From assembly GCA_964347475.1 (NCBI GenBank), contig CAYFYY010000001.1, positions 6,879 to 70,878 on the forward strand: a DNA stretch of 64,000 nucleotides. The letters are read 5' to 3'. This DNA is from an uncultured Flavobacteriales bacterium. GTDB taxonomy: Bacteria > Pseudomonadota > Alphaproteobacteria > UBA8366 > JADFVY01. The translations under genes were made by a program, and so were the position numbers. The stretch's first letter is position 1. Each line of letters begins with the position of its first letter. The notes beneath the pieces were generated by a model. That model worked only from the letters and a program-made list of their open reading frames with translations, was not told where the DNA came from and did no database searches. Below are positions 45,648-58,832 of this stretch, piece by piece.

Positions 45648-47186
45648 TCAGAACGGCATCACTTCGTAGACACAGACCACGCCGCTGCCTTCATTCGCGG
45701 CATAGATGAAAACCGATCCCTGCCGCTTGAAATAGGCGATGCCTTCCGGCGCCTGGCTACCCAGAGACTTGCCCGGGTTGGCGCCGGCAAGCGAGACCAC
45801 TGTGGGATTGGCGGGGTCGGCCAGGGAGACGAGCGCGACCGCGTCGGCCCGCTCCAGCCCCACAGCGGCATAATGAACGCCACGGAACTGGAAGGTCACG
45901 AGGTTCTCCGGCTCAGCGCCCTTGCTGTCGCTGCGGCTGTCAGGATAGAGGCCGGCCGCATCGGCGGCGATGTCGAGCTGTTCGGCGGTATCGCCCAGCA
46001 GGATGCCGGTCTCGGCGTCGAACACGCTGACCGTGCGGCCGCCGGCGGTCGCAAAGCCATCCGGCGTCTTGGAGGCCTTCGGGTCGGTATCGCCCTCGTC
46101 GGCGGTCACGAAATACAGACCGTCGACGGTGGTGGCGATGCCGTCCGGCTCACGCAGCGCGACGAGGGTTTCATTAAAGTCGATGACACCGTTGTCGGTC
46201 TTGTCAGCGACATGGGTGGTGATCCCGAGGCCGATATAGCCGACGAATTCGCCGTCCTCGAGATCGATCACGGCAACGCCGTTGTTCTCCTGCATAACGA
46301 CGAAAGCAAGGTCGCCGTCCTTGGAGAACGAGGCGAGCTCCGGCTCAAGATACCGCGGCGTGTTGTCGAGCAGCGGAATCATCACCAGTTCACCGGACTC
46401 CTCGTTGCCCCACACCTCGGCACCGTCGATGAAGCCGGCCAGGAAATCCAGGTCCTCGATCACGCCGTTGCCGTTGTAATCGAAACCGCCCTCGCCGTCC
46501 TCGAACTCGTCGGCGATGACGCCGTCGCCGTTGAGGTCGACGCCGCGTTCAAGAAGGCGCTTGTCGGCGCCGCTGACCATGCCCGGCGTGCCCGTCGCAT
46601 CCGGCAGTTCCACCAGCGTCGCCTTGGCGCGCCGGGGGCCCTCGCTGAGATTGACGATCGTCACGCTGCCGGGTGGCGAGCTGAATTCCAGAGTCTTGCG
46701 ATCGAAGGAGAACGATTCGCCTTCGTTGGACACCACGGCGAAGTCGCCGTCGGCATCGATCGCCACCGCGTCCGGCTCCGACCCGGCCTTGAGCGCCTTC
46801 AGGAGTTTGCCGTCGGACGCGCGGCGAATTTCGATGCGGCCGTTCTTCTTCGTCCCCTCCACCTCGATGGCGACGATGAAATAGTCCTCTTCCGGATGGA
46901 AGGCGACCGACGTCACGCCCTCGCCGGACCTCAGGCGCAGGTCGAACACGGCGGACACCATCGGCGCGGCCGGATTGCTCAAATCAAGAATCGTGATTGT
47001 GCCTGCGGCTGCGTTCGTCACCGCGGCGCGGGCGGTTTTGCCCTGTACGCTGATGACTTCCGTGCCCTCGCCGACTCCGCTGTCCCAGTGGCCGACCAAG
47101 CTCAGGCTGGCCTCGGCCAGGACGGGCGAACCTGACGCCAAAACGAGCGCCAGCCCCGCGCAGGTTGTCAACGTAATATTCCTCAT
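45648..47186 (-). CDS. Secreted beta-propeller protein, choice-of-anchor-I-like, with an EF-hand/dockerin-like Ca-binding insert
   Basis: Signal MRNITLTTCAGLALVLASGSPVLA, with a GGAGA RBS at the 47186 start. Repeated ..AVxxxGxFAVVSNEG../..YAANEGSG.. strand motifs. Insert DLNGDGVIADEFE..DYNGNGVIEDLD. Family call is tentative. Confidence 0.6.
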   Translation of the reverse strand: MRNITLTTCAGLALVLASGSPVLAEASLSLVGHWDSGVGEGTEVISVQGKTARAAVTNAAAGTITILDLSNPAAPMVSAVFDLRLRSGEGVTSVAFHPEEDYFIVAIEVEGTKKNGRIEIRRASDGKLLKALKAGSEPDAVAIDADGDFAVVSNEGESFSFDRKTLEFSSPPGSVTIVNLSEGPRRAKATLVELPDATGTPGMVSGADKRLLERGVDLNGDGVIADEFEDGEGGFDYNGNGVIEDLDFLAGFIDGAEVWGNEESGELVMIPLLDNTPRYLEPELASFSKDGDLAFVVMQENNGVAVIDLEDGEFVGYIGLGITTHVADKTDNGVIDFNETLVALREPDGIATTVDGLYFVTADEGDTDPKASKTPDGFATAGGRTVSVFDAETGILLGDTAEQLDIAADAAGLYPDSRSDSKGAEPENLVTFQFRGVHYAAVGLERADAVALVSLADPANPTVVSLAGANPGKSLGSQAPEGIAYFKRQGSVFIYAANEGSGVVCVYEVMPF

Positions 47187-47303
47187 CACTGTCTCCAATT
47201 CTTCCTTTTTTGCCAATAACTGTTTGAATATTCGTTATTCTTTTTGGCCAATCTCCCCTCTTGTTCTCCCCAAAATCCTCACATATGCGCGTCAGCGACC
47301 GGC

Positions 47304-49010
47304 CTAACCTGCCAGCCGGTCGCGCAGACCGTTGCCCGACCCCGTACCGGCGGAGGACGCGGCATTGAGACGCAAGCCGTCGAGAAACGCCTCGATCTCC
47401 TTGTTCAATTGTTCGGACTGTCCGGACAGGCTCTGCGCGGCCTCGAGCACCTGCGCCGCCGAAGCGCCGGTCTCGCCGGCGACCTGGCGGACCTCCTCGA
47501 TGCTCTTGGAGACGACCTGCGTTCCCGCCGCGGCCTCCTGCACGCTGCGGGCGATCTCCTGCGTCGAGGAATCCTGTTGCTCGATCGCTGCGGCGATCGC
47601 CGCCGAGTTGTCGCTGATCCGCTGGATGATGCCGAGGATGCCTTGTGTGGCATCGACGGTCTTGCCCGTCGCCGCCTGCACCTCCTCGACCTGCATGGCG
47701 ATCTCGCCGGTCGCATGCGCCGTCTGCTTGGCGAGGTTCTTGACCTCCTGGGCGACCACGGCGAAGCCTTTGCCGGCCTCGCCGGCCCGCGCCGCCTCGA
47801 TCGTCGCATTGAGCGCGAGCAGGTTGATCTTGCTGGCGATCCTGTTGATAAGGTCGACGACCTGACTGATTTTTTCGGCGGCCCGCGCGAGGTCCTGGAC
47901 GGTCACGTCGATGTCCTCGGCGGCCCGAGCCGCTTGCGCCGCGACCTGGCTCGAATCCGTGATCTGACGGTTGATTTCGCGGACCGAGCTCGACAACTGC
48001 TCCGTCGCCGTGGCCGCGGTCTGCACGTTCATCGATGATTCCTCCGAAGCGCTGGCCACGGCGGTCGACTGCCGGTTGTTGTGGTCGGCGAAGGTCGACA
48101 TCGACTTCGCCGTTTCCTGCAGCTGACTCGATGCCGTCGACACGCTGGTCACGATGGCCTTTACGCTGGCATCGAAATGCCGCGCCAGACGTTCCATGGT
48201 CTGGCGCTTCTCCTCGCGAAGGTCCGCTTCGATCAGCTCCTGCTCGGCCTCGATCCGTTCCTTTTCGTTTATGGCGTCGCGGAAGACCCGGACGACGTGG
48301 GCCATCTGAACGATCTCGTTTTCCTGCGACCGGTCTGCCAGCGTGACATCCCCGTGGGCGCGGGCCAGTTCCACCAGCTGGGAAATGATCCGGGCCAGAG
48401 GCGCACTGACCAGCCGCCGGAACAGGACGACGAGGAAGACGATCGATCCCAGCAGGATCGCGGCAGACAGCAGCGACGACCTCTGCAGGGACGCGGCCAG
48501 ATCGGCCTCGATCCCGCGGAAATCCCAGAAGATCAGGACATGTCCCGCGGGCACGACCTTGTTGTATTTCGCCTGGTAATAGACGGACGGGGCGGACACG
48601 ACGGCGTAATCGCCCGCCATCCGGTATTCCGCCTTGTCCGAGCGCAGCACCGCATCGCCTTCGAGCAGACCCGGCAGCACGTCGGCCGTTCCGGCGCGCC
48701 GCCACTGGTAGACGGTGTCGCCGGCCTCGTTGATCGCGACGATGGCGAGAAGATCGCCGACATCGTCGAGAGCGAGCGTTTCGTGCACCTGGCCGAACAC
48801 CGGGGTCCGCCGCCAGCGCAGCGCACCGGACATGGCGGAGGCAATCAGTCCGGTCTGCACCTTCTTGTTCTCGACGATCCGGTTGACGGCGGTCGTTCGT
48901 TCGTGAATGCCCTGGGCAGCGATCAGGACCGCGAAGGACAGGGCGAAAATCCCCGCGACGATGGAAATTGCCCGTCCCTGAAAACTCTTCAGCCGAAGTT
49001 TCGACAGCAT
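47304..49010 (-). CDS. Methyl-accepting chemotaxis protein
   Basis: Two TM helices, a HAMP region, and the highly conserved signalling hairpin [47 protein letters not shown]. Confidence 0.9.
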
Positions 49011-49224: not shown

Positions 49225-49797
49225 TCAGAGCGCGTCAACGTTGAAACCGACGGTCACAGCACCGATCGGCTTGCCCGTGACGGGATCCTTGACCGTGAAA
49301 TTGGCCTGGGACTGCATCGACTGGGTCGAGTTGTCGAATTCGACCACGTCGACGAACATGGCGTCCGGACCGACCAGAAAGGTCTTGGTGAACTTGATCT
49401 CTTCACCTTGCCAGATGTCGGAATTCGGCGCCGACTGGGCGATGCTGAGGCCCATCGCGTCGATCACGCCGATCTCGTTCACCTTGTTGCCGGAGGCTTC
49501 GATGACCTGGCGCATGCGCTCGGCCAGCGAATTGCCGACCACGCTGTCGATCAGCGGGCGGTTGGAGCTGTCGATCTCCGTCTGCCAGGTGGCCTCGAGG
49601 TGATCGATGTCCGATTGGGTCATGTTGCTGCGCCTGGCGTTCGAGGCGCGCAGGGCTTCGATCAGGTCGTCCTGCACGATCATCGAGATGATTTCGGGCA
49701 TGGCCTGCTTGATCGGGGTTTCGTGGGAGTCTGCAATCGCGGGGGTTCCTGAAAAGGCTATGAGGCCCGCCGCAACGATTGTAATGGCGCGTAGCAT
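49225..49797 (-). CDS. Periplasmic protein of unknown function (possible sensor or ligand-binding module) upstream of the MCP gene
   Basis: Signal peptide MLRAITIVAAGLIAFSGTPAIA and an AAGGAAGAGGA RBS. No catalytic motif was recognised. Confidence 0.55.
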   Translation of the reverse strand: MLRAITIVAAGLIAFSGTPAIADSHETPIKQAMPEIISMIVQDDLIEALRASNARRSNMTQSDIDHLEATWQTEIDSSNRPLIDSVVGNSLAERMRQVIEASGNKVNEIGVIDAMGLSIAQSAPNSDIWQGEEIKFTKTFLVGPDAMFVDVVEFDNSTQSMQSQANFTVKDPVTGKPIGAVTVGFNVDAL

Positions 49798-50265
49798 ACC
49801 ATCCTCTTCCTTAGCAGTTTCACAGTGCTTTCATTACCACCGCAGATTGCCTTAAAACTTATTAACAAAGCGTTGATACAAGAAGAAAGTCAGCAGGCAT
49901 TTATTTTACAATAATTTATACATTTGCTACCTTTCGGTCCCATCTCCTAATGCGGGTAAGTTTAATAAAATTGCGCAGTCGGTTTGCAGATTGAACCCGC
50001 TGCGTTTTTTAAACTTAAGATGGAATTAATGCCCTGAGAGGGGCCAATCCGCGGGCTCGAACATCTGACCCGTCCGGGTCTGTCGAAGGCCCCGTAACGA
50101 GAGGTGAAGACCCTTCTCCGGGTTTCCACGGGGCAAAAGTGTCGGACTGTTGGCGGCGCGGAACGCCGGTCGTCGCGGCAGGATTCGCATGGCGGCAGCG
50201 GCCACCCGTGGAAGGCGCGTCGGCTCTTGCGCCTGGGCGCACCGGGGCGCGGTCGCGGCTTGCGG

Positions 50266-51546
50266 TCAGCCGAAGATTTCGGCGGTGATGCCGGCGTACC
50301 AGGCCGCGCCGTCCCGCGCCGCGGCAGCCCGGGTCGCGTCGCTCTCGCCGAGGGGGCTGATCTCCAATTCGATGCGCTGCAGCGCACCCGCCACGACGGC
50401 AAAGGCGGCGCTTTCGTGCACCGCATGATCCGGGGCCACGTGGCTCCAGCACGTGCCGCCGAGGACGCCTGGCCCGGCCGATTCGCCGGAGAGTGCCTCC
50501 AGGATTGCCCGCGCGCAGGATTCCGCATGCTGGTGCGCGGCATAGGCGGCCTTGGGCATCGGCGAGGCGAGCGCGGCGTCGCCGATGACGTGGATGCCGC
50601 GTTGCTGCGTCGACTCGAATGTCAGGGGATCGACCGGGCACCAGCCGCGCCGGTCCGCCAGCCCCGACTGCACGGCGATGCGTCCCGCCGTCTGCGGCGG
50701 AATGACGTTGGCGACGGCGACTTTGAACGACTCGTCCTCGGCCATGACCGTCATGGTCGCCGGGTCCACGCCCTTGATGCCGCCCGCGAAGTCGGCGGGC
50801 AGGACCTCGATCATGCCGGGGTAGAATCGCGTCCAGGCTTCGTGGAACAGGTCGTGGAGCGGAAAATCGTTCTTCGAGTCCAGGATGATGATCCTGGATT
50901 TCGGCTTCTCGCGCCTGAAATAATGGGCGACGAGCGACGCCCGCTCGTACGGCGCGGTCGGGCAGCGATACGGCATGTCCGGCGGTGCGATTAGAAAGGT
51001 GCCGCCGTCGTCCATCGCCTCGAGCTGGATTCGCAGCAGTTCCGTCTGTTTGCCCGCCTGCCAGGCATGCGGCATGGCATTCGCCTCCGCCGGACCGTAG
51101 CCGTCGATCGCGTCCCAGTCGAAGTCGATCCCGGGTGCGACGATCAGCCGGTCCCAGGACAGCACGTCGCCGCCGGCGAGGCGAACCGTCCGCGCGGACG
51201 GATCGATCGCCACCGCAACCTGGTGCATGAGCGTGATGCCGTAGCGTTCGGACAGGACGTCATAGGTGTGGGTCAGCGACTCCAGCGAACGCATTCCACC
51301 GATATGGAGATTGGAGAAGAAACAAGTAACGTAGCGGGTCTTGGGCTCGACGAGGGTGATATTCAGGCCCTTGCCCGCCGCGGCCAGGAATCGGGCCGCC
51401 GTGGCGCCGCCGGCGCCGCCGCCGATCACGACGACCCGGCCGCCGGCCGCCAGCGCATCGCGCCGCATCACGAAGGGCGCAGCCATCAGCGCCGCGCCCG
51501 CCGTCCTGATGAAGTGTCGCCGGCGCATCCCTGCCATGCCTGCCAT
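50266..51546 (-). CDS. FccB-like FAD-dependent sulfide dehydrogenase flavoprotein (second copy, no adjacent cytochrome gene)
   Basis: Tat signal MRRRHFIRTAGAALMAAPFVMRRDALA, VVVIGGGAGGATAARF, and the C-terminal WYAGITAEIFG. Paralogous to 42147-43424 along its whole length. Confidence 0.8.
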   Translation of the reverse strand: MAGMAGMRRRHFIRTAGAALMAAPFVMRRDALAAGGRVVVIGGGAGGATAARFLAAAGKGLNITLVEPKTRYVTCFFSNLHIGGMRSLESLTHTYDVLSERYGITLMHQVAVAIDPSARTVRLAGGDVLSWDRLIVAPGIDFDWDAIDGYGPAEANAMPHAWQAGKQTELLRIQLEAMDDGGTFLIAPPDMPYRCPTAPYERASLVAHYFRREKPKSRIIILDSKNDFPLHDLFHEAWTRFYPGMIEVLPADFAGGIKGVDPATMTVMAEDESFKVAVANVIPPQTAGRIAVQSGLADRRGWCPVDPLTFESTQQRGIHVIGDAALASPMPKAAYAAHQHAESCARAILEALSGESAGPGVLGGTCWSHVAPDHAVHESAAFAVVAGALQRIELEISPLGESDATRAAAARDGAAWYAGITAEIFG

Positions 51547-51635
51547 CCGATCGAGCCGGAGGTTGAGTCCTCCCGACCGCCACTGTACAGGCGAAATGCC
51601 GGATGCGTAAGCCCGCCATGGCGCAAGGCGAAGGC

Positions 51636-52331
51636 TCAGGCGGCGCGCGTTGCCCCCGGTGCGGCGTCGAGGTCGCCGGAAGCCGTCGCCCCGATGATTT
51701 CCCAGCTCCGTGCCCGCGCCGCGCGGGCAAGCCGCCGATCGGGGCGGACGGCGATCGGCCGCGCCACCCGTGCCAGCAGCGCAAGGTCATGAATCGAGTC
51801 GGCATAAGCGGCGGCCCGCGCAAGCTCGGCGCCGTGCCGCGCGCACAGATCGTCGGCCGCGGCGATCTTGTCGATCCCCAGCGGATGACGGACCGGCGGG
51901 GCCGCCGCGAACCGGCCATCCCGTAGCGCATAGCGCGCGCCCTGCCAGCCGTCGGCGCCGATCCGCTCCGCCAGCGGCCTGGCGAGGAAATCCGGGGTTC
52001 CGGTCAGCAGCAGGATCACATCGCCGGCACGGCGGTGCTCCTCGATGCGCTGCAGGACGGCCCGGTCGATCAGGCGGGCAAGATCGCGCTCCGCGAACGC
52101 GCGTGCAAGGGCGGCCACATCGTCGAGCGCGAGGCCGGCCAGATAGGCCTTGTTCTTGCGCAGCACGTGACGCCGGTAACGCCATCCGTTCGCCAGCATG
52201 AACCAGCCGGCCGCGGCAATCTGCGGCACGCCGATCACGCGGCGCCGCAGGAGATCCCGGACGAACAGGGATTCACTGCTGTGCGGTCCGGTCAGCAGTG
52301 TTCCATCGACGTCGAAAATCGCTGCGTTCAC
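51636..52331 (-). CDS. HAD-IB family phosphatase (SerB-like subfamily)
   Basis: Motif I AIFDVDGTLL, LLTGTPDF, and YADSIHDLALL. The GTG start overlaps the upstream stop (GTGA). Confidence 0.75.
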   Translation of the reverse strand: MNAAIFDVDGTLLTGPHSSESLFVRDLLRRRVIGVPQIAAAGWFMLANGWRYRRHVLRKNKAYLAGLALDDVAALARAFAERDLARLIDRAVLQRIEEHRRAGDVILLLTGTPDFLARPLAERIGADGWQGARYALRDGRFAAAPPVRHPLGIDKIAAADDLCARHGAELARAAAYADSIHDLALLARVARPIAVRPDRRLARAARARSWEIIGATASGDLDAAPGATRAA

Positions 52332-52978
52332 TCCACTGCCTCACGATAGGTCGAGCCGCGGGCCGGCTCCGCCACGGGACCCGGCCGCCTGGCGAGGAAC
52401 TCTATCACGACCGGCACGCCGCGGACGAGGCACATGACCACCGAGCACCACACGAGACCGCTGAGAATCGCCATGGCGGCGCCACCGAACTCGACCCAGA
52501 AGGACAGGTAGAGCGCGGGCAGCGGCTGCACCAGCAGGGCCAGGCCGAAGGTGGCCGTCTTGACCGTGTTGTAGAGGCCGCGCATGAAGCGTCCGCCGAC
52601 AAGAAAGCGGCCCAGGGGCGAGCGCATCATGTCGAACGGCGCGACGCCCTCGGACGCCGCCGCCGAATTGCGGATCGCATCGACGACGTTGCCCCGGACG
52701 ATGAACACGAGGGCGGCCCACACGGGCAGCAGGCCGATTTGGGCCAGCACGACCCACAGGACCGTTTCGACGACCCGGTCTGCGGCGATATCGAACGTCG
52801 CCCCGAATAGCGATGTCTCGCCGAACGCGCGCGCCGCATATCCGTCCAGCGCGTCCATCACCATGATGAGCGCGAGCAGCGGCAGGTTCCACAGCTGCCA
52901 GGCCGGCGGCGCCCAGTAGACCATGCCGACCAGGACGAACAGGAGGGTGAGACGGCCAAGCGTCACCAGATTTGCCAT
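52328..52978 (-). CDS. CDP-alcohol phosphatidyltransferase family protein (paralogue A)
   Basis: Complete signature DALDGYAARAFGETSLFGATFDIAADRV, i.e. D-x2-D-G-x2-A-R-x8-G-x3-D-x3-D. About six TM segments. Confidence 0.8.
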   Translation of the reverse strand: MANLVTLGRLTLLFVLVGMVYWAPPAWQLWNLPLLALIMVMDALDGYAARAFGETSLFGATFDIAADRVVETVLWVVLAQIGLLPVWAALVFIVRGNVVDAIRNSAAASEGVAPFDMMRSPLGRFLVGGRFMRGLYNTVKTATFGLALLVQPLPALYLSFWVEFGGAAMAILSGLVWCSVVMCLVRGVPVVIEFLARRPGPVAEPARGSTYREAVE

Positions 52979-53123
52979 GCGTGGGCTCCGTTGGACATGT
53001 ACGACGCTTCGCCCGGCGCGACCAGGCGATGGCCTCGTCGATTTGGCGGAACTCTACGGCCTTGTCTCTTAAACTTCGTTAAGGATTGTCGGGTTGCCAA
53101 GGGGTCCGGGCGCCGTGCCGCCG

Positions 53124-53759
53124 CTACTCGGCGCTGCCGGGCGCGCGGCGCAGGCCCGCGAACGGGTCCTCGCGCTGGAAGAACTCCGCGAGCACGGGAA
53201 TGCCGCGCAGGAAATTGATCGCCACGGCGAGCCACACGAGGCCCGCCAGCACGGCTTCGAACAGCGCGCCCCGCGCGACCCAGAAGGCGGGGTCGATCGC
53301 CGGCAGCGGCTGCATCAGCACGGCCCAGCCGAAGGCGGCCACCTTGCTGCCGCACGACATGCCGCGCATGAACTTGCCGACGACGAGCGCCCGTCCCCAG
53401 CGCGAGCGCATCATCTCATACGGCGCCTGGCCCTCGCTTGCCCCGGTCTGGCGGATCGAATCGGTCAGGTGGCCGCGGACGATGAAATACACCGGCACCC
53501 ACACCGGCACCAGACCGAGATGGGCCAGCACGACCCACATCACGCTCTCCACGATGCGGTCGACGGCGATGTCGAACACCGCGCCGAACAGCGTGGATTC
53601 GTTGCGCCGCCGCGCCACGACGCCGTCGAGCCAGTCGAGCAGCACGACGGCCAGCAGCAGCGGCAGGTCGATAAGCTGCCAGGCCGGGGGCGCGAAATAC
53701 ATCATCACAACGAGGACGAACAGGAGCAGCAGGCGGGCCAGGGTGATCGCGTTCGCCAT
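53124..53759 (-). CDS. CDP-alcohol phosphatidyltransferase family protein (paralogue B)
   Basis: Signature DWLDGVVARRRNESTLFGAVFDIAVDRI. The start MANAITLARL aligns with the paralogue A start MANLVTLGRL and has a GGAGAGAG RBS. The track ORF start at 53774 is a TTG. Confidence 0.8.
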   Translation of the reverse strand: MANAITLARLLLLFVLVVMMYFAPPAWQLIDLPLLLAVVLLDWLDGVVARRRNESTLFGAVFDIAVDRIVESVMWVVLAHLGLVPVWVPVYFIVRGHLTDSIRQTGASEGQAPYEMMRSRWGRALVVGKFMRGMSCGSKVAAFGWAVLMQPLPAIDPAFWVARGALFEAVLAGLVWLAVAINFLRGIPVLAEFFQREDPFAGLRRAPGSAE

Positions 53760-53854
53760 ATCGACTCTCTCCAAACGTTCGGGAACCGCGCAGACCAGGA
53801 CGGACTGCGCCGCAAGATGAACACGGCGGCCAGCACGACTCGGCAGACCGGCTC

Positions 53855-53862
53855 TTAACCAT
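53855..53862 (+). promoter_or_regulatory. TTAACCAT (CtrA-type 8-mer) in the divergent spacer between paralogue B and the Sel1 gene
   Basis: Exact 8-mer within the 370-nt spacer 53760-54129. Confidence 0.3.
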
Positions 53863-54129
53863 GATTATAACGTAAACAAACGGCTTGAGGAGGGGGCATC
53901 CTGAACCGCCGCCCGTCGCGGACTCCGCGGCCGAGGAGTCGCCGGGCGGCAAGACCGCTCCGACCTGGGGACACGGCCGGCGGGCGTGCCGAACGGCTGC
54001 GCGGGTGTCGCCGGATTCATCGAAACGAAACCTTCTGTCGGCTATCTGAATCGCTTGCGAGATGTACGGCAGGGCCCGGAAAGGGTCGCCCCGCGGAACC
54101 ATCACGCATCCTGTGACGGAGACTCCACG

Positions 54130-56019
54130 ATGAAAAGGCTTGTCGTCGCGCTCTTTCTGGTGATCGTCCTGACCGACCCGGCCCGGCCCGGCATCGATGA
54201 GGCGCAGGACGCATACGACCGGGGCGACTTCGCAGCGGCATACGCTGAAGTTCGACCCCTCGCCGAGAACGGCAACCCCGAGGCCCAGGTCTTGCTCGGC
54301 GCCCTGTACGAGTATGGCCACGGTGTACGCGGCGCCCCTTCAGAGGCTGTACGTTGGTACCGGTTGGCCGCGGAGCAGGGCCATGCCCGGGGCCAGGCCT
54401 ATCTAGGCGCCATGTTTCTGACGGGGACGGGCGTGGCACAGGACGAGGCCACCGCGCTGTCCTGGTTCCGTCTGTCGGCCGAGCAGGGAGACGCGCGCGG
54501 ACAGACCAGTCTCGGCTACATGTACGAGACCGGGAGGGGCGTGGCCGCGGACGTCACCGAGGCGGCACGATGGTACGGAATGGCCGCCGAGCAGGGGTAT
54601 GCCGTCGCGCAGTACAATCTGGCCTTGATGTTCGAAAATGGCCGGGGCGTCGAGCAGGACGACGAGGAAGCGGCACGCTGGTACTTGATGGCGGCGCGAC
54701 AGGGCGATGCCGACGCCCAGACGAACCTCGGCTGGATGTACGAGAACGGCCGGGGTGTCGAGCAGGACGACGAGGAAGCGGCACACTGGTACTTGATGGC
54801 GGCGCGACAGGGCGATGCCGACGCGCAGACGAACCTCGGCTGGATGTACGAGAACGGCCGAGGCGTCGAACAGAATGACACAGAGGCTGTACGCTGGTAT
54901 CGCCTTGCTGCGGACCAGGGGTACGCGCGTGCGCAGACCAATCTTGGCTGGGTGTATGAGAACGGCCGGGGCGTCGCGCAGAATGATACAGAAGCCGTGC
55001 GCTGGTACCAAATCGCGGCGGAGCAGGACTATGACCGCGCCCAGAACGTCATGGGCCTGATGCATCAGTGGGGCCGTGGCGTGCCGCAGGATTACGCCGA
55101 AGCGGTGCGCTGGTACCGGAAGGCGGCCGAACAGGACTATCCCACCGCACAGTACAATCTGGCTTTGATGTATGAAAAGGGTCGAGGTGTTGACCAGGAC
55201 AGCGCGGCGGCCGTGCGCTGGTATCGCCGCGCCGCCGAGCAGGGGAACGCGGACGCCCAGACCAACCTTGGCTGGATGTACGGCAATGGCCGGGGAGTCG
55301 CCGAGGACGACGCGGAAGCCGTGCGCTGGTACGGCCTCGCAGCCGAGCAGGCGCATGCCGTCGCGCAGTACAATCTTGGCATCATGTACCGCTACGGCCA
55401 AGGGGTCGCCCGGAATTACCGACAGGCTCTCCAGTGGTTCAGGCTTGCTGCCGAGCAGGGCGACATCGATGCGCAATACAATATGGGCGAAATGTACGAG
55501 TCCGGGTTGGGCGTCGAGCGAGATCGGGCCGAAGCTGCGCGGTGGTACCGCCTGGCAGCCAACCAGGGCGATGGCGATGCGCAGGCCAAGCTCGGCTGGT
55601 TCTATCTCGAGGGAGCCGGAGTCGACCAGGACTACCGGGAAGCCCTCAGCTGGTTCCGACTTGCCGCCGAACAGGGAAGCGCGTCGGCCCAGTACAATCT
55701 CGGGCTCATGTACGAGACCGGCAAGGGAGTGGCAAGGAACGGCGCGAGCGCGACAGCCTGGTACCGTCGGTCGGCGGGGAACGGCGACGTCGACGCGCTG
55801 TTCCGGCTCGGCGTGATCTACGACGAGGGCCAGGGAATCGATGCGGACCGAACGGAAGCCTATAAGTGGTTTGTGCTGGCCAAGCGCCGCGGCAATCCGT
55901 CGGCGTCGCCTCGGCTTCTGTTGCTGTGGTTCGCCATGAATGCGGACGAAATCGCCGCAGCCGAAGCGCTGGCGGACGAATGGCAGGGCCTGCATCCGGT
56001 GCCCAACCGGGCGGACTGA
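54130..56019 (+). CDS. Secreted Sel1-repeat (SLR/TPR-like) protein, about 15-16 repeats
   Basis: Signal MKRLVVALFLVIVLTDPARP. Iterated A.(R/S)W(Y/F)..AAEQG.A.AQ.NLG.MYE.G.GV.QD units. GGAGA RBS. Confidence 0.85.
   Translation: MKRLVVALFLVIVLTDPARPGIDEAQDAYDRGDFAAAYAEVRPLAENGNPEAQVLLGALYEYGHGVRGAPSEAVRWYRLAAEQGHARGQAYLGAMFLTGTGVAQDEATALSWFRLSAEQGDARGQTSLGYMYETGRGVAADVTEAARWYGMAAEQGYAVAQYNLALMFENGRGVEQDDEEAARWYLMAARQGDADAQTNLGWMYENGRGVEQDDEEAAHWYLMAARQGDADAQTNLGWMYENGRGVEQNDTEAVRWYRLAADQGYARAQTNLGWVYENGRGVAQNDTEAVRWYQIAAEQDYDRAQNVMGLMHQWGRGVPQDYAEAVRWYRKAAEQDYPTAQYNLALMYEKGRGVDQDSAAAVRWYRRAAEQGNADAQTNLGWMYGNGRGVAEDDAEAVRWYGLAAEQAHAVAQYNLGIMYRYGQGVARNYRQALQWFRLAAEQGDIDAQYNMGEMYESGLGVERDRAEAARWYRLAANQGDGDAQAKLGWFYLEGAGVDQDYREALSWFRLAAEQGSASAQYNLGLMYETGKGVARNGASATAWYRRSAGNGDVDALFRLGVIYDEGQGIDADRTEAYKWFVLAKRRGNPSASPRLLLLWFAMNADEIAAAEALADEWQGLHPVPNRAD
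54649..54864 (+). repeat. Near-identical tandem duplication, 2 x 108 nt (one Sel1 unit each), inside 54130-56019
   Basis: Units 54649-54756 and 54757-54864 differ at 4 of 108 positions by my direct comparison. This gives one amino-acid change, R to H. Confidence 0.9.
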
Positions 56020-56184
56020 AAGCCGGCGGCGGCGGAAATACGTCTGATGCCAACGCAACCCCGATATGCTGATATATCGCACCGGGCCATTTCACGGTTT
56101 GCGCTGGCGGCCCGGTCTGGATGGCATTACAAATCACCGCCTGCCCGCCGCGGGACGACGGGATCGCTACCAAATATCTTCCGG

Positions 56185-57306
56185 ATGCATCACGCACAGA
56201 TACGCAAGGCAAGACTGGCCGACATATCGGCGCTCGTGACCCTAGAGAACCGGTCATTCGAGCATGACCGGCTGTCGCGGCGCAGCTTCCGTTACCTGCT
56301 GACCCGCGGCCACGCGGAGACCGTCGTCGCGGCCAGCGCCGGCAAGGTGATTCTCGGCTATGCGATGGTGCTGTTCAACCGCGGCACGTCGCTGGCCCGG
56401 CTGTATTCCATCGCGGTCGACCCGAATCACCGGGGCCACGGGCTGGGCACCCGACTGCTGCACGCCGCAGAGGAAGCGGCGCGTGACCATGGCGCTGCCT
56501 ATATGCGCCTCGAGGTGCGCGAGGACGATCCGGCGACGCGCCGCCTCTACGAGAAGGAGGGATATCGCAAGTTTGCGGTCGAGCACCATTATTATGAGGA
56601 CGATGTCGACGCGATCCGCATGGAACGGTCGCTCGCACCGGCGCGCGACCCGAGCCTCGCGCGGGTGCCGTATTACAGCCAGAATCTGGATTTCACCTGC
56701 GGGCCGGCAGCGATCTTGATGGCCATGCATGCGCTGGATACGGACATCCCCGTCGACCAGACGGCCGAACTTCGCCTGTGGCGTGAGTCGACGACGATCT
56801 ACATGACGTCGGGCCACGGCGGCTGCAGCCCGCTGGGGCTCGCCGTCGCGGTCTCGCGCCGCGGATTTCCGGTGGCGGTCTGGCTCAGCCAGCAGTCACC
56901 GCTCTTCGTCGACTCGGTGCGTAGCGAGAAAAAGAAGGAAGTCATACGCCTTGTCGAAGAGGATTTCCGCAGGGAAGCGCGGGAACGAGGAATTCCGATC
57001 AGCTACCGGCCGTTATCGGTCAAGGCCATGCGGGAGAAATTCGATGCCGGCGGCATTCCGATCGTGCTGGTCAGCTCCTGGCGCTTCGATCGCGAGCGGA
57101 CACCGCACTGGGTCGTTGTCACCGGCTTCGACGATGAATATGTCTATCTCCACGATCCCTATATCGACCCCGATCAGGACAAGTCGGCCACCGATTGCAT
57201 GCAGATACCGGTCCCCCTCAGCGACTTCCGGCGAATGGCGCGCTACGGCCGCGCACAGCAGAAGGCGGCGCTGGTGATCAGCCCGCGCGCGGACGACGCC
57301 CGCTGA
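56185..57306 (+). CDS. Fusion protein: GNAT N-acetyltransferase plus a papain-fold C39-like peptidase domain
   Basis: GNAT core RGHGLGTRLLHAAEEAARDHGAAYMRLEV..LYEKEGY. C-terminal VPYYSQNLDFTCGPAAILMAMHAL (Cys) and HWVVVTGFDDEYVYLHDP (His). The start is uncertain; the ATG at 56047 is the alternative. Confidence 0.75.
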   Translation: MHHAQIRKARLADISALVTLENRSFEHDRLSRRSFRYLLTRGHAETVVAASAGKVILGYAMVLFNRGTSLARLYSIAVDPNHRGHGLGTRLLHAAEEAARDHGAAYMRLEVREDDPATRRLYEKEGYRKFAVEHHYYEDDVDAIRMERSLAPARDPSLARVPYYSQNLDFTCGPAAILMAMHALDTDIPVDQTAELRLWRESTTIYMTSGHGGCSPLGLAVAVSRRGFPVAVWLSQQSPLFVDSVRSEKKKEVIRLVEEDFRREARERGIPISYRPLSVKAMREKFDAGGIPIVLVSSWRFDRERTPHWVVVTGFDDEYVYLHDPYIDPDQDKSATDCMQIPVPLSDFRRMARYGRAQQKAALVISPRADDAR

Positions 57307-58832
57307 TGCCGCTGCATCTGATTATCGTGGACAAGCCCGAGGACTTCCCCTGGGACATGCCAGGCTGTCGCGTCGTCGTCGCCCGCGACTTCATCCGCGA
57401 GCCGGCGCCGCCCAAGTCGACCTCCATGCGGGTGGTCAATCTGTGCCGCGACCACAGCTATTTGAGCCTCGGCTACTACTGTTCCCTGCTGGCGGAAGGG
57501 CGCGGCCATCGCACGATCCCGTCGATCGAAGTCATGCTGGACCTGCACTGGAAGCGGTTGCTGCGCATCGCCCTGCCGGAGGTCAACGAGCTCGTCGAGA
57601 AGACCTTCCAGGCGCCGCCCGAATCGAGCCCGGTGATCGCGCATGTTTACTTCCGTCAGCCGGACGACTCCCGCCTCGCGGATGCGGCCGGACGTATTTT
57701 CGACCTGTTTCGCTGTCCGATCCTCAAAGTGACCCTCGGCCACCGCGCCGGCCAGTGGGAAATAACCGACCTCGCCCCCGGCGCCATCCGCGATCTCGAC
57801 GAAGCCCAGCGGCAGACGTTCCGGCAGGCGCTGGAACGGTATCTCCAGGTCGCGTGGCGGCAACAGCGGACGACGACGCCGGCGCGATATTCGATCGCCA
57901 TCCTGCACGATCCGGCCGAGAAACTGCCGCCGTCGAATGCGCGTTCGCTGGAGAAATTCGTGAAAGCCGGCGCGCAGCTCGGCGTCGAGGTCGAGCTGAT
58001 CACAAAGGCGGACTACGGACGGCTGCTCGAGTTCGACGCCCTGTTCATCCGCGAGACCACGGCGCTCGACCACCACACCTACCGTTTCGCCAAGAAAGCG
58101 GATACGGAGGATCTCGTGGTGATCGACGACCCGCGTTCGATCCTGCGCTGCACCAACAAGATCTACCTGGCGGAGCTGCTTCAGACCAACGGCGTGCCGA
58201 CGCCGAAGACCCTTGTCATCGACCGCCGCGGCATCGAGCGCGTCGAGGTGGAGCTCGGCTTTCCCGCGGTGATCAAGATCCCCGACGGGTCGTTCTCGCG
58301 CGGCATGCACCGGGTGGCCGACGCGGCGGAGCTCAAGGCCATCACCGCGACGGTATTCGACGAGTCCGACCTCATCATCGCCCAGGAATACATGCGCACG
58401 GAATTCGACTGGCGCGTCGGTGTTCTGGACGGCAAGCCGATCTATGTCTGCCAGTACGAAATGGCCCGGGGCCACTGGCAGATCGTCAAGCACGACGGCG
58501 ACGGCCAGATGCTCGAGGGGGAGTCGCGCACGCTCGCGGTCGCCGACGCGCCGCCGGCGGTGGTCGACACCGCGCTCCGTGCGGCCGCGCTCATCGGCGA
58601 CGGGCTATACGGTGTCGATCTGAAGGAGACTCCGGCCGGCATCTTCGTGGTCGAGGTCAACGACAATCCCAGCATCGACGCCGGCGTCGAGGACCTCGTG
58701 CTGAAGGACTCGTTGTACCAGACCATCATCAACGCCTTCATCGAGCGGCTCGACCGCCGCTCGCAGTCGCAGCCGCGCCGCAACAACGGCGCCAAGGGCA
58801 CCGGCCAGGAAGCAGGCCGGAACCCGAAGTAA
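57306..58832 (+). CDS. RimK-family ATP-grasp ligase with a long N-terminal extension domain
   Basis: ATP-grasp blocks LGFPAVIKIPDGSFSRGM, IIAQEYMRTEFDWRV, and VVEVNDNPSIDAGVED. It is preceded by about 220 aa of non-grasp sequence. The start overlaps the upstream stop (TGATG). Confidence 0.8.
   Translation: MPLHLIIVDKPEDFPWDMPGCRVVVARDFIREPAPPKSTSMRVVNLCRDHSYLSLGYYCSLLAEGRGHRTIPSIEVMLDLHWKRLLRIALPEVNELVEKTFQAPPESSPVIAHVYFRQPDDSRLADAAGRIFDLFRCPILKVTLGHRAGQWEITDLAPGAIRDLDEAQRQTFRQALERYLQVAWRQQRTTTPARYSIAILHDPAEKLPPSNARSLEKFVKAGAQLGVEVELITKADYGRLLEFDALFIRETTALDHHTYRFAKKADTEDLVVIDDPRSILRCTNKIYLAELLQTNGVPTPKTLVIDRRGIERVEVELGFPAVIKIPDGSFSRGMHRVADAAELKAITATVFDESDLIIAQEYMRTEFDWRVGVLDGKPIYVCQYEMARGHWQIVKHDGDGQMLEGESRTLAVADAPPAVVDTALRAAALIGDGLYGVDLKETPAGIFVVEVNDNPSIDAGVEDLVLKDSLYQTIINAFIERLDRRSQSQPRRNNGAKGTGQEAGRNPK

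Follow-up and report, generated by a model that had tools for sequence, protein, structure and literature searches.

A PgsA-like CDP-alcohol phosphatidyltransferase and a HAD-IB phosphatase form a conserved gene pair in several bacterial classes, with the transferase duplicated in an alphaproteobacterial lineage

The locus described here lies in a 64-kb stretch of contig CAYFYY010000001.1, from an uncultured bacterium placed by GTDB in the Alphaproteobacteria. The whole 64-kb stretch was analyzed and is called the window, and sequence coordinates are window positions. Three genes are considered: two paralogous CDP-alcohol phosphatidyltransferases, CDP1 and CDP2, and a predicted phosphatase of subfamily IB of the HAD superfamily, called HAD below. 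The locus is a real module, probably for a two-step phospholipid pathway, in which a PgsA-like transferase is coupled to a HAD-IB phosphatase, and the module is conserved across several bacterial classes. In the first step, the transferase would condense CDP-diacylglycerol with a phosphorylated alcohol, most probably sn-glycerol-3-phosphate, to give phosphatidylglycerol phosphate (PGP). In the second step, the translationally coupled HAD would take off the terminal phosphate, which with glycerol-3-phosphate would leave phosphatidylglycerol (PG). The transferase gene has been duplicated in this alphaproteobacterial lineage, with both copies kept by selection and each probably able to partner HAD alone. 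We give this explanation, taken as a whole, an even chance of being correct, and glycerol-3-phosphate as the specific acceptor less than that.

Results

The three genes and their layout

CDP1, CDP2 and HAD follow one another on the minus strand (Table 1). The signature D-x2-D-G-x2-A-R-x(6-14)-G-x3-D-x3-D, searched as a regular expression in all six frames, matches exactly twice in the window, once in each transferase gene (DWLDGVVARRRNESTLFGAVFDIAVD and DALDGYAARAFGETSLFGATFDIAAD). Both proteins belong to the superfamily PF01066 (65.1 bits for CDP1 and 60.4 bits for CDP2, cut-off 22), and they are 57% identical to each other over 198 residues (BLASTP, E = 2e-75). A previous reading made from the sequence alone (the sequence-only reading) had described two membrane transferases in tandem on one strand, each with the full signature and more than half of their positions identical, and had placed a GTGA overlap between CDP2 and the start of HAD. 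All of this was found as described; the junction reads ...GCA GTG GAG TGA AAC....

The start codons were also considered. HAD motif I falls at residues 7-11 of the protein read from the GTG codon (MNAAIFDVDGTLL, also cited as MNAAIFDVDGTL), and therefore this start is correct. CDP1 has GGAGAG 8 nucleotides (nt) 5' of its ATG; an upstream TTG at position 53774 would extend the protein to 216 residues, and the ATG was preferred because the homologues begin with MAN. The gene order is not accidental, because it recurs in related genomes.

Conservation of the transferase-HAD pair

A protein search with CDP2 over 5.8 billion proteins returned 444 homologues, named generically or carrying the automatic JGI name 'PgsA'. 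Of 185,579 species genomes (pattern scan, one genome per species), 297 or more encode a relative, and an exhaustive profile search of 1.84 billion representatives at 50% identity gave 167 clusters at E <= 1e-30. Among 150 representatives from the profile search, no transferase was of fusion length. The alphaproteobacterial carriers are Rhodospirillales, Defluviicoccus, Kiloniellales and Virgifigura; the gammaproteobacterial carriers are about 28 Salinisphaera, Spectribacter and other Salinisphaerales genomes, Litorivivens and Nevskiales; further carriers are Desulfobacterales, Syntrophales, Binatota and a few others. This patchy distribution has the look of horizontal transfer. A tblastn search of CDP2 against 72,556 plasmids gave no match.

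Gene context was counted in the 80 best loci from the species-genome scan (numbered with L below), in which HAD was placed by tblastn and by clustering of open reading frames (ORFs). An orthologue of the window HAD lies directly downstream of the transferase, on the same strand, in 66 of these 80 loci, which include Alphaproteobacteria, Gammaproteobacteria, Desulfobacterales, Syntrophales and others. In most of the 66, the HAD start follows the transferase stop at a distance of -4, -1 or 0 to +8 nt. Since this tight junction is kept across loci, the translational coupling is itself conserved. The conserved unit is the pair and not the tandem. Thus, where the sequence-only reading had asked whether the three-gene arrangement is conserved, the transferase-HAD part of it is, and the tandem is limited to five loci, most genomes having one transferase.

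No third partner gene recurs across lineages in two clusterings of the flanking ORFs of the 80 loci and the annotated contexts, and neither a nucleotidyltransferase nor an inositol-phosphate synthase is recurrent beside the module in the 80 loci and the Pfam-annotated contexts. With no other conserved neighbor, the substrates should be ubiquitous metabolites. Other synteny is local. In Salinisphaerales (L002-L005 and L017-L068, about 28 Salinisphaera and Spectribacter genomes) the pair is flanked by gpsA, the gene of glycerol-3-phosphate dehydrogenase, which is co-directional and about 80 nt upstream, and by a methyltransferase gene of the SpoU family (PF00588); a gpsA-secB-rhodanese arrangement is limited to this order. 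Several loci without an adjacent HAD have a gene for a ChaC-like gamma-glutamylcyclotransferase just upstream on the same strand, which is limited to some Rhodospirillales. When E. coli PgsA and PgpC were searched by tblastn against the loci and the window, only the module genes matched, a result for these loci and not for the remaining genomes.

Family, fold and ligand residues of the transferases

The best NCBIfam match of both transferases is TIGR00560 (PgsA), with 58.8 bits for CDP1 and 56.3 bits for CDP2, roughly half of the cut-off of 109.1, and only residues from about 2 to 116 align. The other models score lower: a second PgsA model, NF008090 (36.4 and 22.5 bits, cut-off 304); archaetidylinositol-phosphate synthase (AIPS), NF040950 (50.2 and 40.2 bits, cut-off 180); the PIPS models NF045883 and NF052561 (35.7 and 32.5 bits against 170, and 25.3 against 350); Cls-AT, NF053678 (33.4 and 30.1 bits, cut-off 240); and DIPPS (16-19 bits, cut-off 580). 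PssA was also below the PgsA score. Judged by these profiles, the transferases are a distinct subfamily, far under every curated equivalog cut-off, and are PgsA-like rather than PgsA-orthologous, which agrees with the earlier opinion that neither copy is a standard PgsA, PssA or Pcs. Identity to E. coli and S. aureus PgsA is about 19-32%. PgsA is nonetheless clearly the nearest relative by profile score and predicted fold.

In the family alignment (A1), residues N3, R50, R68, R95, R103, R124, R133, K140 and R186 are invariant. The C-terminal half is strongly conserved within the family, with the motifs GRxLVxGRFMRG, QPxP and RGxPVxxEF, of which the latter two, together with an extra interfacial helix, set the module transferases apart from PgsA. 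An AlphaFold2 model of CDP2 built from the family alignment (pLDDT 86.5, pTM 0.81) has six long helices and a short interfacial helix at residues 121-128, and the predicted six-transmembrane fold is the one shared by the solved superfamily members. All significant Foldseek matches of the model in the PDB are CDP-alcohol transferases (PgsA, PSS, DIPPS, PIPS and AF2299). The top match is S. aureus PgsA (SaPgsA; 7DRJ/7DRK), with TM-scores of 0.64/0.73 and E = 1e-4, compared with a query-normalized TM-score of 0.48-0.56 for M. tuberculosis PIPS and a TM-score of 0.54 for DIPPS (4MND). A search of PDB sequences with the family profile also placed 7DRJ at the top; the CDP2 sequence alone gave marginal matches (E ~0.007), so the family profile was needed.

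The alignment to SaPgsA carries the ligand residues with it. In SaPgsA, Asn5 and Arg65 are ligands of CDP, and Lys83, Arg110 and Arg118, with Lys137, bind the 3'-phosphate of PGP (PMC8640168). In the hidden Markov model (HMM) alignment to 7DRJ, the family residues N3 and R50 fall on Asn5 and Arg65, and the invariant R68, R95 and R103 fall on Lys83, Arg110 and Arg118; E. coli PgsA aligns in the same way as SaPgsA at these residues (hhalign). At the R95 column, the PIPS chain of M. tuberculosis has Thr and PSS has no aligned residue. The Arg of the R110 type also separates PgsA from Cls-AT, where a hydrophobic residue takes its place (PMC10411912). With a low score and the invariant R95 at this position, the module transferases fall outside Cls-AT, and with low scores and no MIPS-like neighbor in the 80 loci or annotated contexts they fall outside PIPS and AIPS. 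Our reading of these alignments is that the acceptor pocket is probably built for a phosphate-bearing alcohol.

The HAD phosphatase

HAD matches PF12710 (86.9 bits) and TIGR01488, the HAD-IB superfamily model (47.4 bits, cut-off 45). Against TIGR01490 (HAD-IB 'hyp1') it scores 95.9 bits, just under the cut-off of 98.3, and many of its homologues are annotated by JGI as members of that family. The HAD motifs are invariant in alignments A2 and A3: motif I D7xD9GT (D7, D9, G10, T11), the T of motif II in LLTGT, K155 of motif III, and D178/D182 of motif IV. An AlphaFold2 model from alignment A3, which was made of database homologues, has a pLDDT of 90.5 and consists of a Rossmann core with a four-helix C1 cap at residues 19-101, in which a conserved aromatic/basic helix is found. 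By score, by motifs I-IV and by this alpha-helical cap, the protein is a member of subfamily IB.

Within the subfamily, the module HADs form a discrete orthologous group. Their matches are continuous down to E = 5e-33, followed by 3e-16 for other TIGR01490-type proteins, and they have invariant motifs of their own, KNKAYL and RGWE. The closest solved structure is 3FVV, a soluble Bordetella protein of unknown function, followed by SerB-type HAD-IB phosphatases. BLASTP against E. coli PgpC gave a match limited to the N-terminal 31 residues; hhalign aligned 183 columns, including the cap, at 97% probability (E = 7e-11, 25% identity). A SerB control scored 95% (E = 2e-8) over the C-terminal 105 columns only. 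Thus, HAD is by sequence a relative of PgpC and not a member of its family, and because the SerB control also scored, the resemblance to PgpC is not specific enough to assign a substrate. In addition, distant homologues include fusions of HAD to PlsC, the 1-acylglycerol-3-phosphate acyltransferase (P0202 and P0211), a second, independent and recurrent link of this HAD branch to phospholipid synthesis.

Duplication and selection of the transferase paralogues

The tandem arrangement CDP1-CDP2-HAD is found in five loci (the window, which is L001, and L006, L007, L090 and L091). Orthologues of CDP1 with 79-94% identity are present in L006, L007, L090, L091 and L089. The last of these, in a complete 3.86-Mb genome (CP070634.1), has CDP1-HAD alone; the transferase there shows 86% identity with CDP1 and 55% with CDP2. 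Close relatives (L008-L012) have CDP2-HAD alone, and CDP2 is the orthologue of the single-copy transferase gene of most other genomes. Since each paralogue is found alone with HAD, either suffices as a partner, which argues against an obligate heterodimer. The heterodimer suggested by the sequence-only reading is therefore unlikely in its obligate form.

In a neighbor-joining tree rooted on E. coli PgsA, the CDP1 clade (window, L006, L007, P0049 and P0062) adjoins the CDP2 clade within one alphaproteobacterial branch. Nonsynonymous divergence (dN) between CDP1 and CDP2 is 0.39 and synonymous divergence (dS) is near saturation. These results indicate that the duplication is lineage-specific but not recent. 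The dN/dS ratio is 0.10-0.19 for CDP1, 0.21-0.28 for CDP2 and 0.24-0.36 for HAD, and both transferase copies are under purifying selection.

The fixed changes Y136S and C183N mark the CDP1 clade, at sites where the 117 other family members compared do not vary; V99T, F115Y and others are further changes in this clade. These substitutions are compatible with a shifted specificity, and two head groups from the two paralogues are possible on this evidence. The tandem is best read as two isozymes, with CDP1 possibly differing in its preference for acceptor or acyl chains, or in its regulation. The three natural arrangements, CDP1-CDP2-HAD, CDP2-HAD and CDP1-HAD, offer a ready comparison for paralogue specialization.

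Upstream elements and neighboring genes

Short elements precede both transferase genes (Table 1). The window has just two copies of the heptamer TTAAGAG, both lying about 90-95 nt 5' of the start codon of a CDP paralogue. The raw count is not above chance (0.98 expected); what deserves notice is only where the copies lie and how they are conserved. The element upstream of CDP1 is largely kept in L006, L007, L091 and L089. In the spacer element, the core CTTAAC...TAAG is invariant in the five tandem loci (alignment A4), and the same CTTAA-N6-TTAAG element lies upstream of CDP2 in L008, which is without CDP1 (alignment A5). The spacer element is likely the promoter or operator of CDP2-HAD, and the two TTAAGAG sites may be a shared operator or promoter. 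Because the spacer element also precedes CDP2 as the first gene in L008, and TTAAGAG stands at a similar distance before CDP1, CDP2-HAD probably keeps its own regulatory site. A search of Rfam at a permissive threshold found no match at positions 50000-54400, a scan with the sigma-70 consensus found no promoter match, and a terminator scan gave matches at background level and inside coding sequence.

Table 1. Positions of the module genes, upstream elements and neighboring genes in the window.
Feature	Position	Strand	Description
CDP1	53124..53759	minus	CDP-alcohol phosphatidyltransferase, upstream paralogue, 211 aa, ATG start (ORF listing and sequence)
CDP2	52328..52978	minus	CDP-alcohol phosphatidyltransferase, 216 aa, overlaps HAD (ORF listing and sequence)
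HAD	51636..52331	minus	predicted HAD-IB phosphatase, 231 aa, GTG start (ORF listing and sequence)
GTGA overlap	52328..52331	minus	CDP2 TGA stop 52328-52330, HAD GTG start 52329-52331
CDP1 upstream element	53852..53871	minus	GTTATAATCATGGTTAAGAG; TATAAT-like hexamer, then TTAAGAG; ~93 nt 5' of the start codon
CDP1-CDP2 spacer element	53066..53083	minus	CTTAA-CGAAGT-TTAAGAG, palindrome CTTAA-N6-TTAAG, in the 145-nt spacer
FCSD-type sulfide dehydrogenase flavoprotein	50266..51546	minus	PF21706, PF07992, PF09242; 89 nt downstream of HAD; not part of the module
Sel1-repeat protein	53986..56019	plus	677 aa, secreted-looking, ~15 Sel1 repeats (PF08238, 519 bits); divergent from CDP1
GNAT fusion	56047..57306	plus	GNAT acetyltransferase fused to a DUF3335 / C39-like peptidase domain
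RLAN + RimK-type protein	57195..58832	plus	RLAN and RimK-type ATP-grasp protein
190-aa protein	49225..49797	minus	signal-peptide protein, no Pfam or NCBIfam match
Methyl-accepting chemotaxis protein	47304..49010	minus	downstream of FCSD
Choice-of-anchor I domain protein	45648..47216	minus	downstream of FCSD

The gene downstream of HAD encodes an FCSD-type flavoprotein, which has a twin-arginine-like N-terminus (MRRRHFIRTAGA). This gene is found after HAD in all close alphaproteobacterial relatives (L006-L012 and L089) and is absent from this place in other lineages. A second FCSD paralogue is present in some relatives, and in L011 and L012 a small gene for a CxxCH cytochrome lies close by; beside the FCSD gene of the window, no gene for a cytochrome subunit could be recognised. 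The order of the next three minus-strand genes is kept in CP070634.1 (L089), where the synteny of FCSD and the chemotaxis gene downstream of the pair is the same as in the window. On the other side, the Sel1-repeat protein has two nearly identical consecutive repeat units (…EAARWYLMAARQGDADAQTNLGWMYENGRGVEQDDEEAA…) and is kept upstream of the module in L006-L008. The RLAN/RimK-type ORF as listed overlaps the GNAT-fusion ORF by about 110 nt, and therefore its start is probably further downstream.

Discussion

A synthase followed by a phosphatase, which the sequence-only reading had proposed by analogy, fits the evidence for two reasons. First, the pair and its junction are kept in 66 of 80 loci. 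Secondly, invariant Arg residues occupy three of the positions that bind the 3'-phosphate of PGP. Since the module comes without a cytidylyltransferase, CDP-diacylglycerol would be the default donor, and the PgsA-like phosphate ligands and fold would make sn-glycerol-3-phosphate the most probable acceptor. The adjacency of gpsA in Salinisphaerales is suggestive of a glycerol-3-phosphate supply.

The known system most like the module is PgsA with its phosphatases PgpA, PgpB, PgpC or PgpP, in which a synthase is likewise followed by a phosphatase. PgsA itself (TIGR00560; 7DRJ/7DRK) shares with the module transferases the CDP-alcohol signature, the six-transmembrane fold and, in the alignment, five ligand positions. 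A PGP phosphatase of the HAD superfamily is also known, as PgpC in E. coli and as PgpP in Gram-positives (PMC11804483). Unlike E. coli pgsA, however, the module transferase has its phosphatase in the same operon with overlapping codons, and unlike PgpC and PgpP the module HAD is on the TIGR01490-like IB branch. Members of the TIGR01490 group (HAD-PlsC fusions and the Pseudomonas-type histidinol-phosphatase) resemble it in HMM score and in the C1-cap fold, while its own motifs and its separate orthologous group distinguish it from them.

Several points weigh against the pathway to PG. First, 14 of the 80 loci, mostly from Rhodospirillales and Defluviicoccus, have no adjacent HAD. In these loci (L014, L031, L036, L038, L052, L056, L065, L072, L077-L080 and L085) no HAD lies within 6 kb, and their transferases keep all family-invariant residues. 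Secondly, a canonical PgsA and PgpA would be expected in these proteobacteria in any case; if these are present, a second route to PG would be redundant, which favors a different acceptor. Third, neither transferase reaches the PgsA cut-off, and the confident alignment is confined to the N-terminal half, whereas the C-terminal half, on the acceptor side, is family-specific. SaPgsA K137 and Y181 lie in the weakly aligned C-terminal half and have no reliable mapping; K140 and R133 are candidate counterparts, in an uncertain register. Fourth, the closest characterized relatives of HAD by curated HMM are soluble histidinol-phosphate phosphatases of the Pseudomonas type (84 bits, cut-off 280), the PgpC-type NCBIfam model is absent among the HAD matches at E <= 0.01, and the resemblance to PgpC is at the general HAD-I level. 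Fifth, the gpsA adjacency is confined to a single lineage. Lastly, the assignment of substrates draws on sequence and predicted structure, and it should be read as provisional for this reason.

The same two steps may act on another acceptor, such as myo-inositol-1-phosphate (giving phosphatidylinositol phosphate and then phosphatidylinositol), sn-glycerol-1-phosphate or another polyol or sugar-alcohol phosphate, so that an accessory anionic lipid would be made beside housekeeping PG. We consider this unlikely. A subfamily that is distinct from PgsA and under its cut-off, with a C-terminal half of its own and the invariant QPxP and RGxPVxxEF motifs, would be expected in this case, a sporadic distribution suits an accessory function, and the AIPS and PIPS profiles also match weakly. 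There are also precedents for a phosphorylated lipid trimmed by a dedicated phosphatase, in mycobacterial PgsA1 and in Bacteroides BT_1523 and BT_1525, whose genes are clustered (PMC9246714). The nearest genomic precedent for a CDP-alcohol transferase physically coupled to a HAD is the putative 'alternative' inositol-lipid cluster of Bacteroides vulgatus and Prevotella, in which the two are fused in P. veroralis; its function there is unconfirmed (PMC9246714). However, that cluster, compared here by gene content, has an NTP transferase and adjoins MIPS, and use of CDP-inositol has been proposed for it (PMC9246714), whereas the module flanks contain neither gene. In no lineage is a gene for a precursor, such as inositol-phosphate synthase, conserved beside the module. 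In addition, the M. tuberculosis PIPS chain, with Thr at R95/R110, is without the Arg kept by the module transferases, the PIPS profiles score far below their cut-offs, and the predicted fold is closer to PgsA than to PIPS.

Another possibility is that HAD acts upstream of the transferase and dephosphorylates a small phospho-alcohol, for example an amino-alcohol phosphate, the free alcohol then being joined to CDP-diacylglycerol in the manner of PssA or Pcs. The characterized relatives of HAD are soluble small-molecule phosphatases (histidinol-phosphate phosphatase by HMM and SerB by fold) and the structure closest to it, 3FVV, is of a soluble protein, all of which would suit this order. We regard it as quite improbable, because a neutral or cationic acceptor would not need the three invariant Arg residues at the terminal-phosphate positions of PGP (PMC8640168), and Cls-AT, whose acceptor is not phosphorylated, has hydrophobic residues in place of the R110-equivalent Arg (PMC10411912). 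The tight coupling with the phosphatase gene second also fits sequential action on the transferase product, although this is only suggestive.

The module could also make a soluble compatible solute, a phosphodiester of the di-inositol-phosphate or diglycerol-phosphate type, from a soluble CDP-alcohol donor and a phospho-alcohol, with HAD acting afterwards, like archaeal IPCT/DIPPS. A DIPP synthase followed by a phosphatase is the pathway logic in Archaeoglobus and Thermococcales. Halophilic or marine organisms are frequent among the carriers (Salinisphaera, Spectribacter, Litorivivens and marine-sediment Desulfobacterales; salinity ranges in PMC11165706), and DIPPS (4MND) is among the fold matches. 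In these precedents, however, the cytidylyltransferase is fused, as in the bifunctional IPCT-DIPPS of A. fulgidus (4MND) and the bifunctional Thermococcales enzyme (NF041135), while none is fused or adjacent in any of the 80 loci or annotated contexts. The DIPPS profile score is negligible and the best structural neighbor is a lipid enzyme, PgsA. This explanation is thus very improbable. Finally, it is hardly credible, and already disfavored, that transferase and HAD are unrelated genes that merely adjoin, with the second transferase a decaying copy: the loci without an adjacent HAD would allow it and stop-start overlaps are frequent in GC-rich operons, but the pair and its tight junction are kept across at least three classes while other neighbors change, the HAD partners form their own orthologous group, and both paralogues keep their catalytic and family-invariant residues at dN/dS of 0.10-0.28.

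A bolder version of the two-step lipid pathway is that HAD is a bona fide PGP-type phosphatase, which would make the TIGR01490-like HAD-IB branch, including the HAD-PlsC fusions, a further class of head-group phosphatases, or that the transferase, especially in the CDP1 clade with Y136S and C183N, makes a non-glycerol head group and so a new bacterial phospholipid, or both. We think this rather unlikely. If it is true, the branch would become a candidate source of the 'missing' PGP phosphatase where PgpA and PgpP are reported to be absent, namely in Rhizobiales, Actinobacteria and Chlamydiae (PMC11804483). The description of PgpP dates from as late as 2025, and for entire phyla no PGP phosphatase is known yet (PMC11804483).

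Our search of the literature found no paper characterizing this transferase subfamily. Rhodospirillales metagenome-assembled genomes are reported to have an unexplained variety of CDP-alcohol transferases (PMC10411912). Polar-lipid statements for Spectribacter are uninformative because they are genome-predicted only.

The head-group pathways of bacterial phospholipids are usually treated as solved, yet new PGP phosphatases continue to come to light. The pair described here is a compact, apparently horizontally mobile combination of a synthase and a dedicated phosphatase. It is present in about 300 species or more, and many of these are marine, halophilic or sulfur-cycling. Its conserved features give annotators a criterion against the automatic names 'PgsA' (JGI) and 'phosphoserine phosphatase'. 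If the pair makes PG, it would be a portable anionic-lipid cassette and would tie the 'hyp1' branch of HAD-IB to the hydrolysis of lipid phosphates; any other product would point to an undescribed phospholipid.

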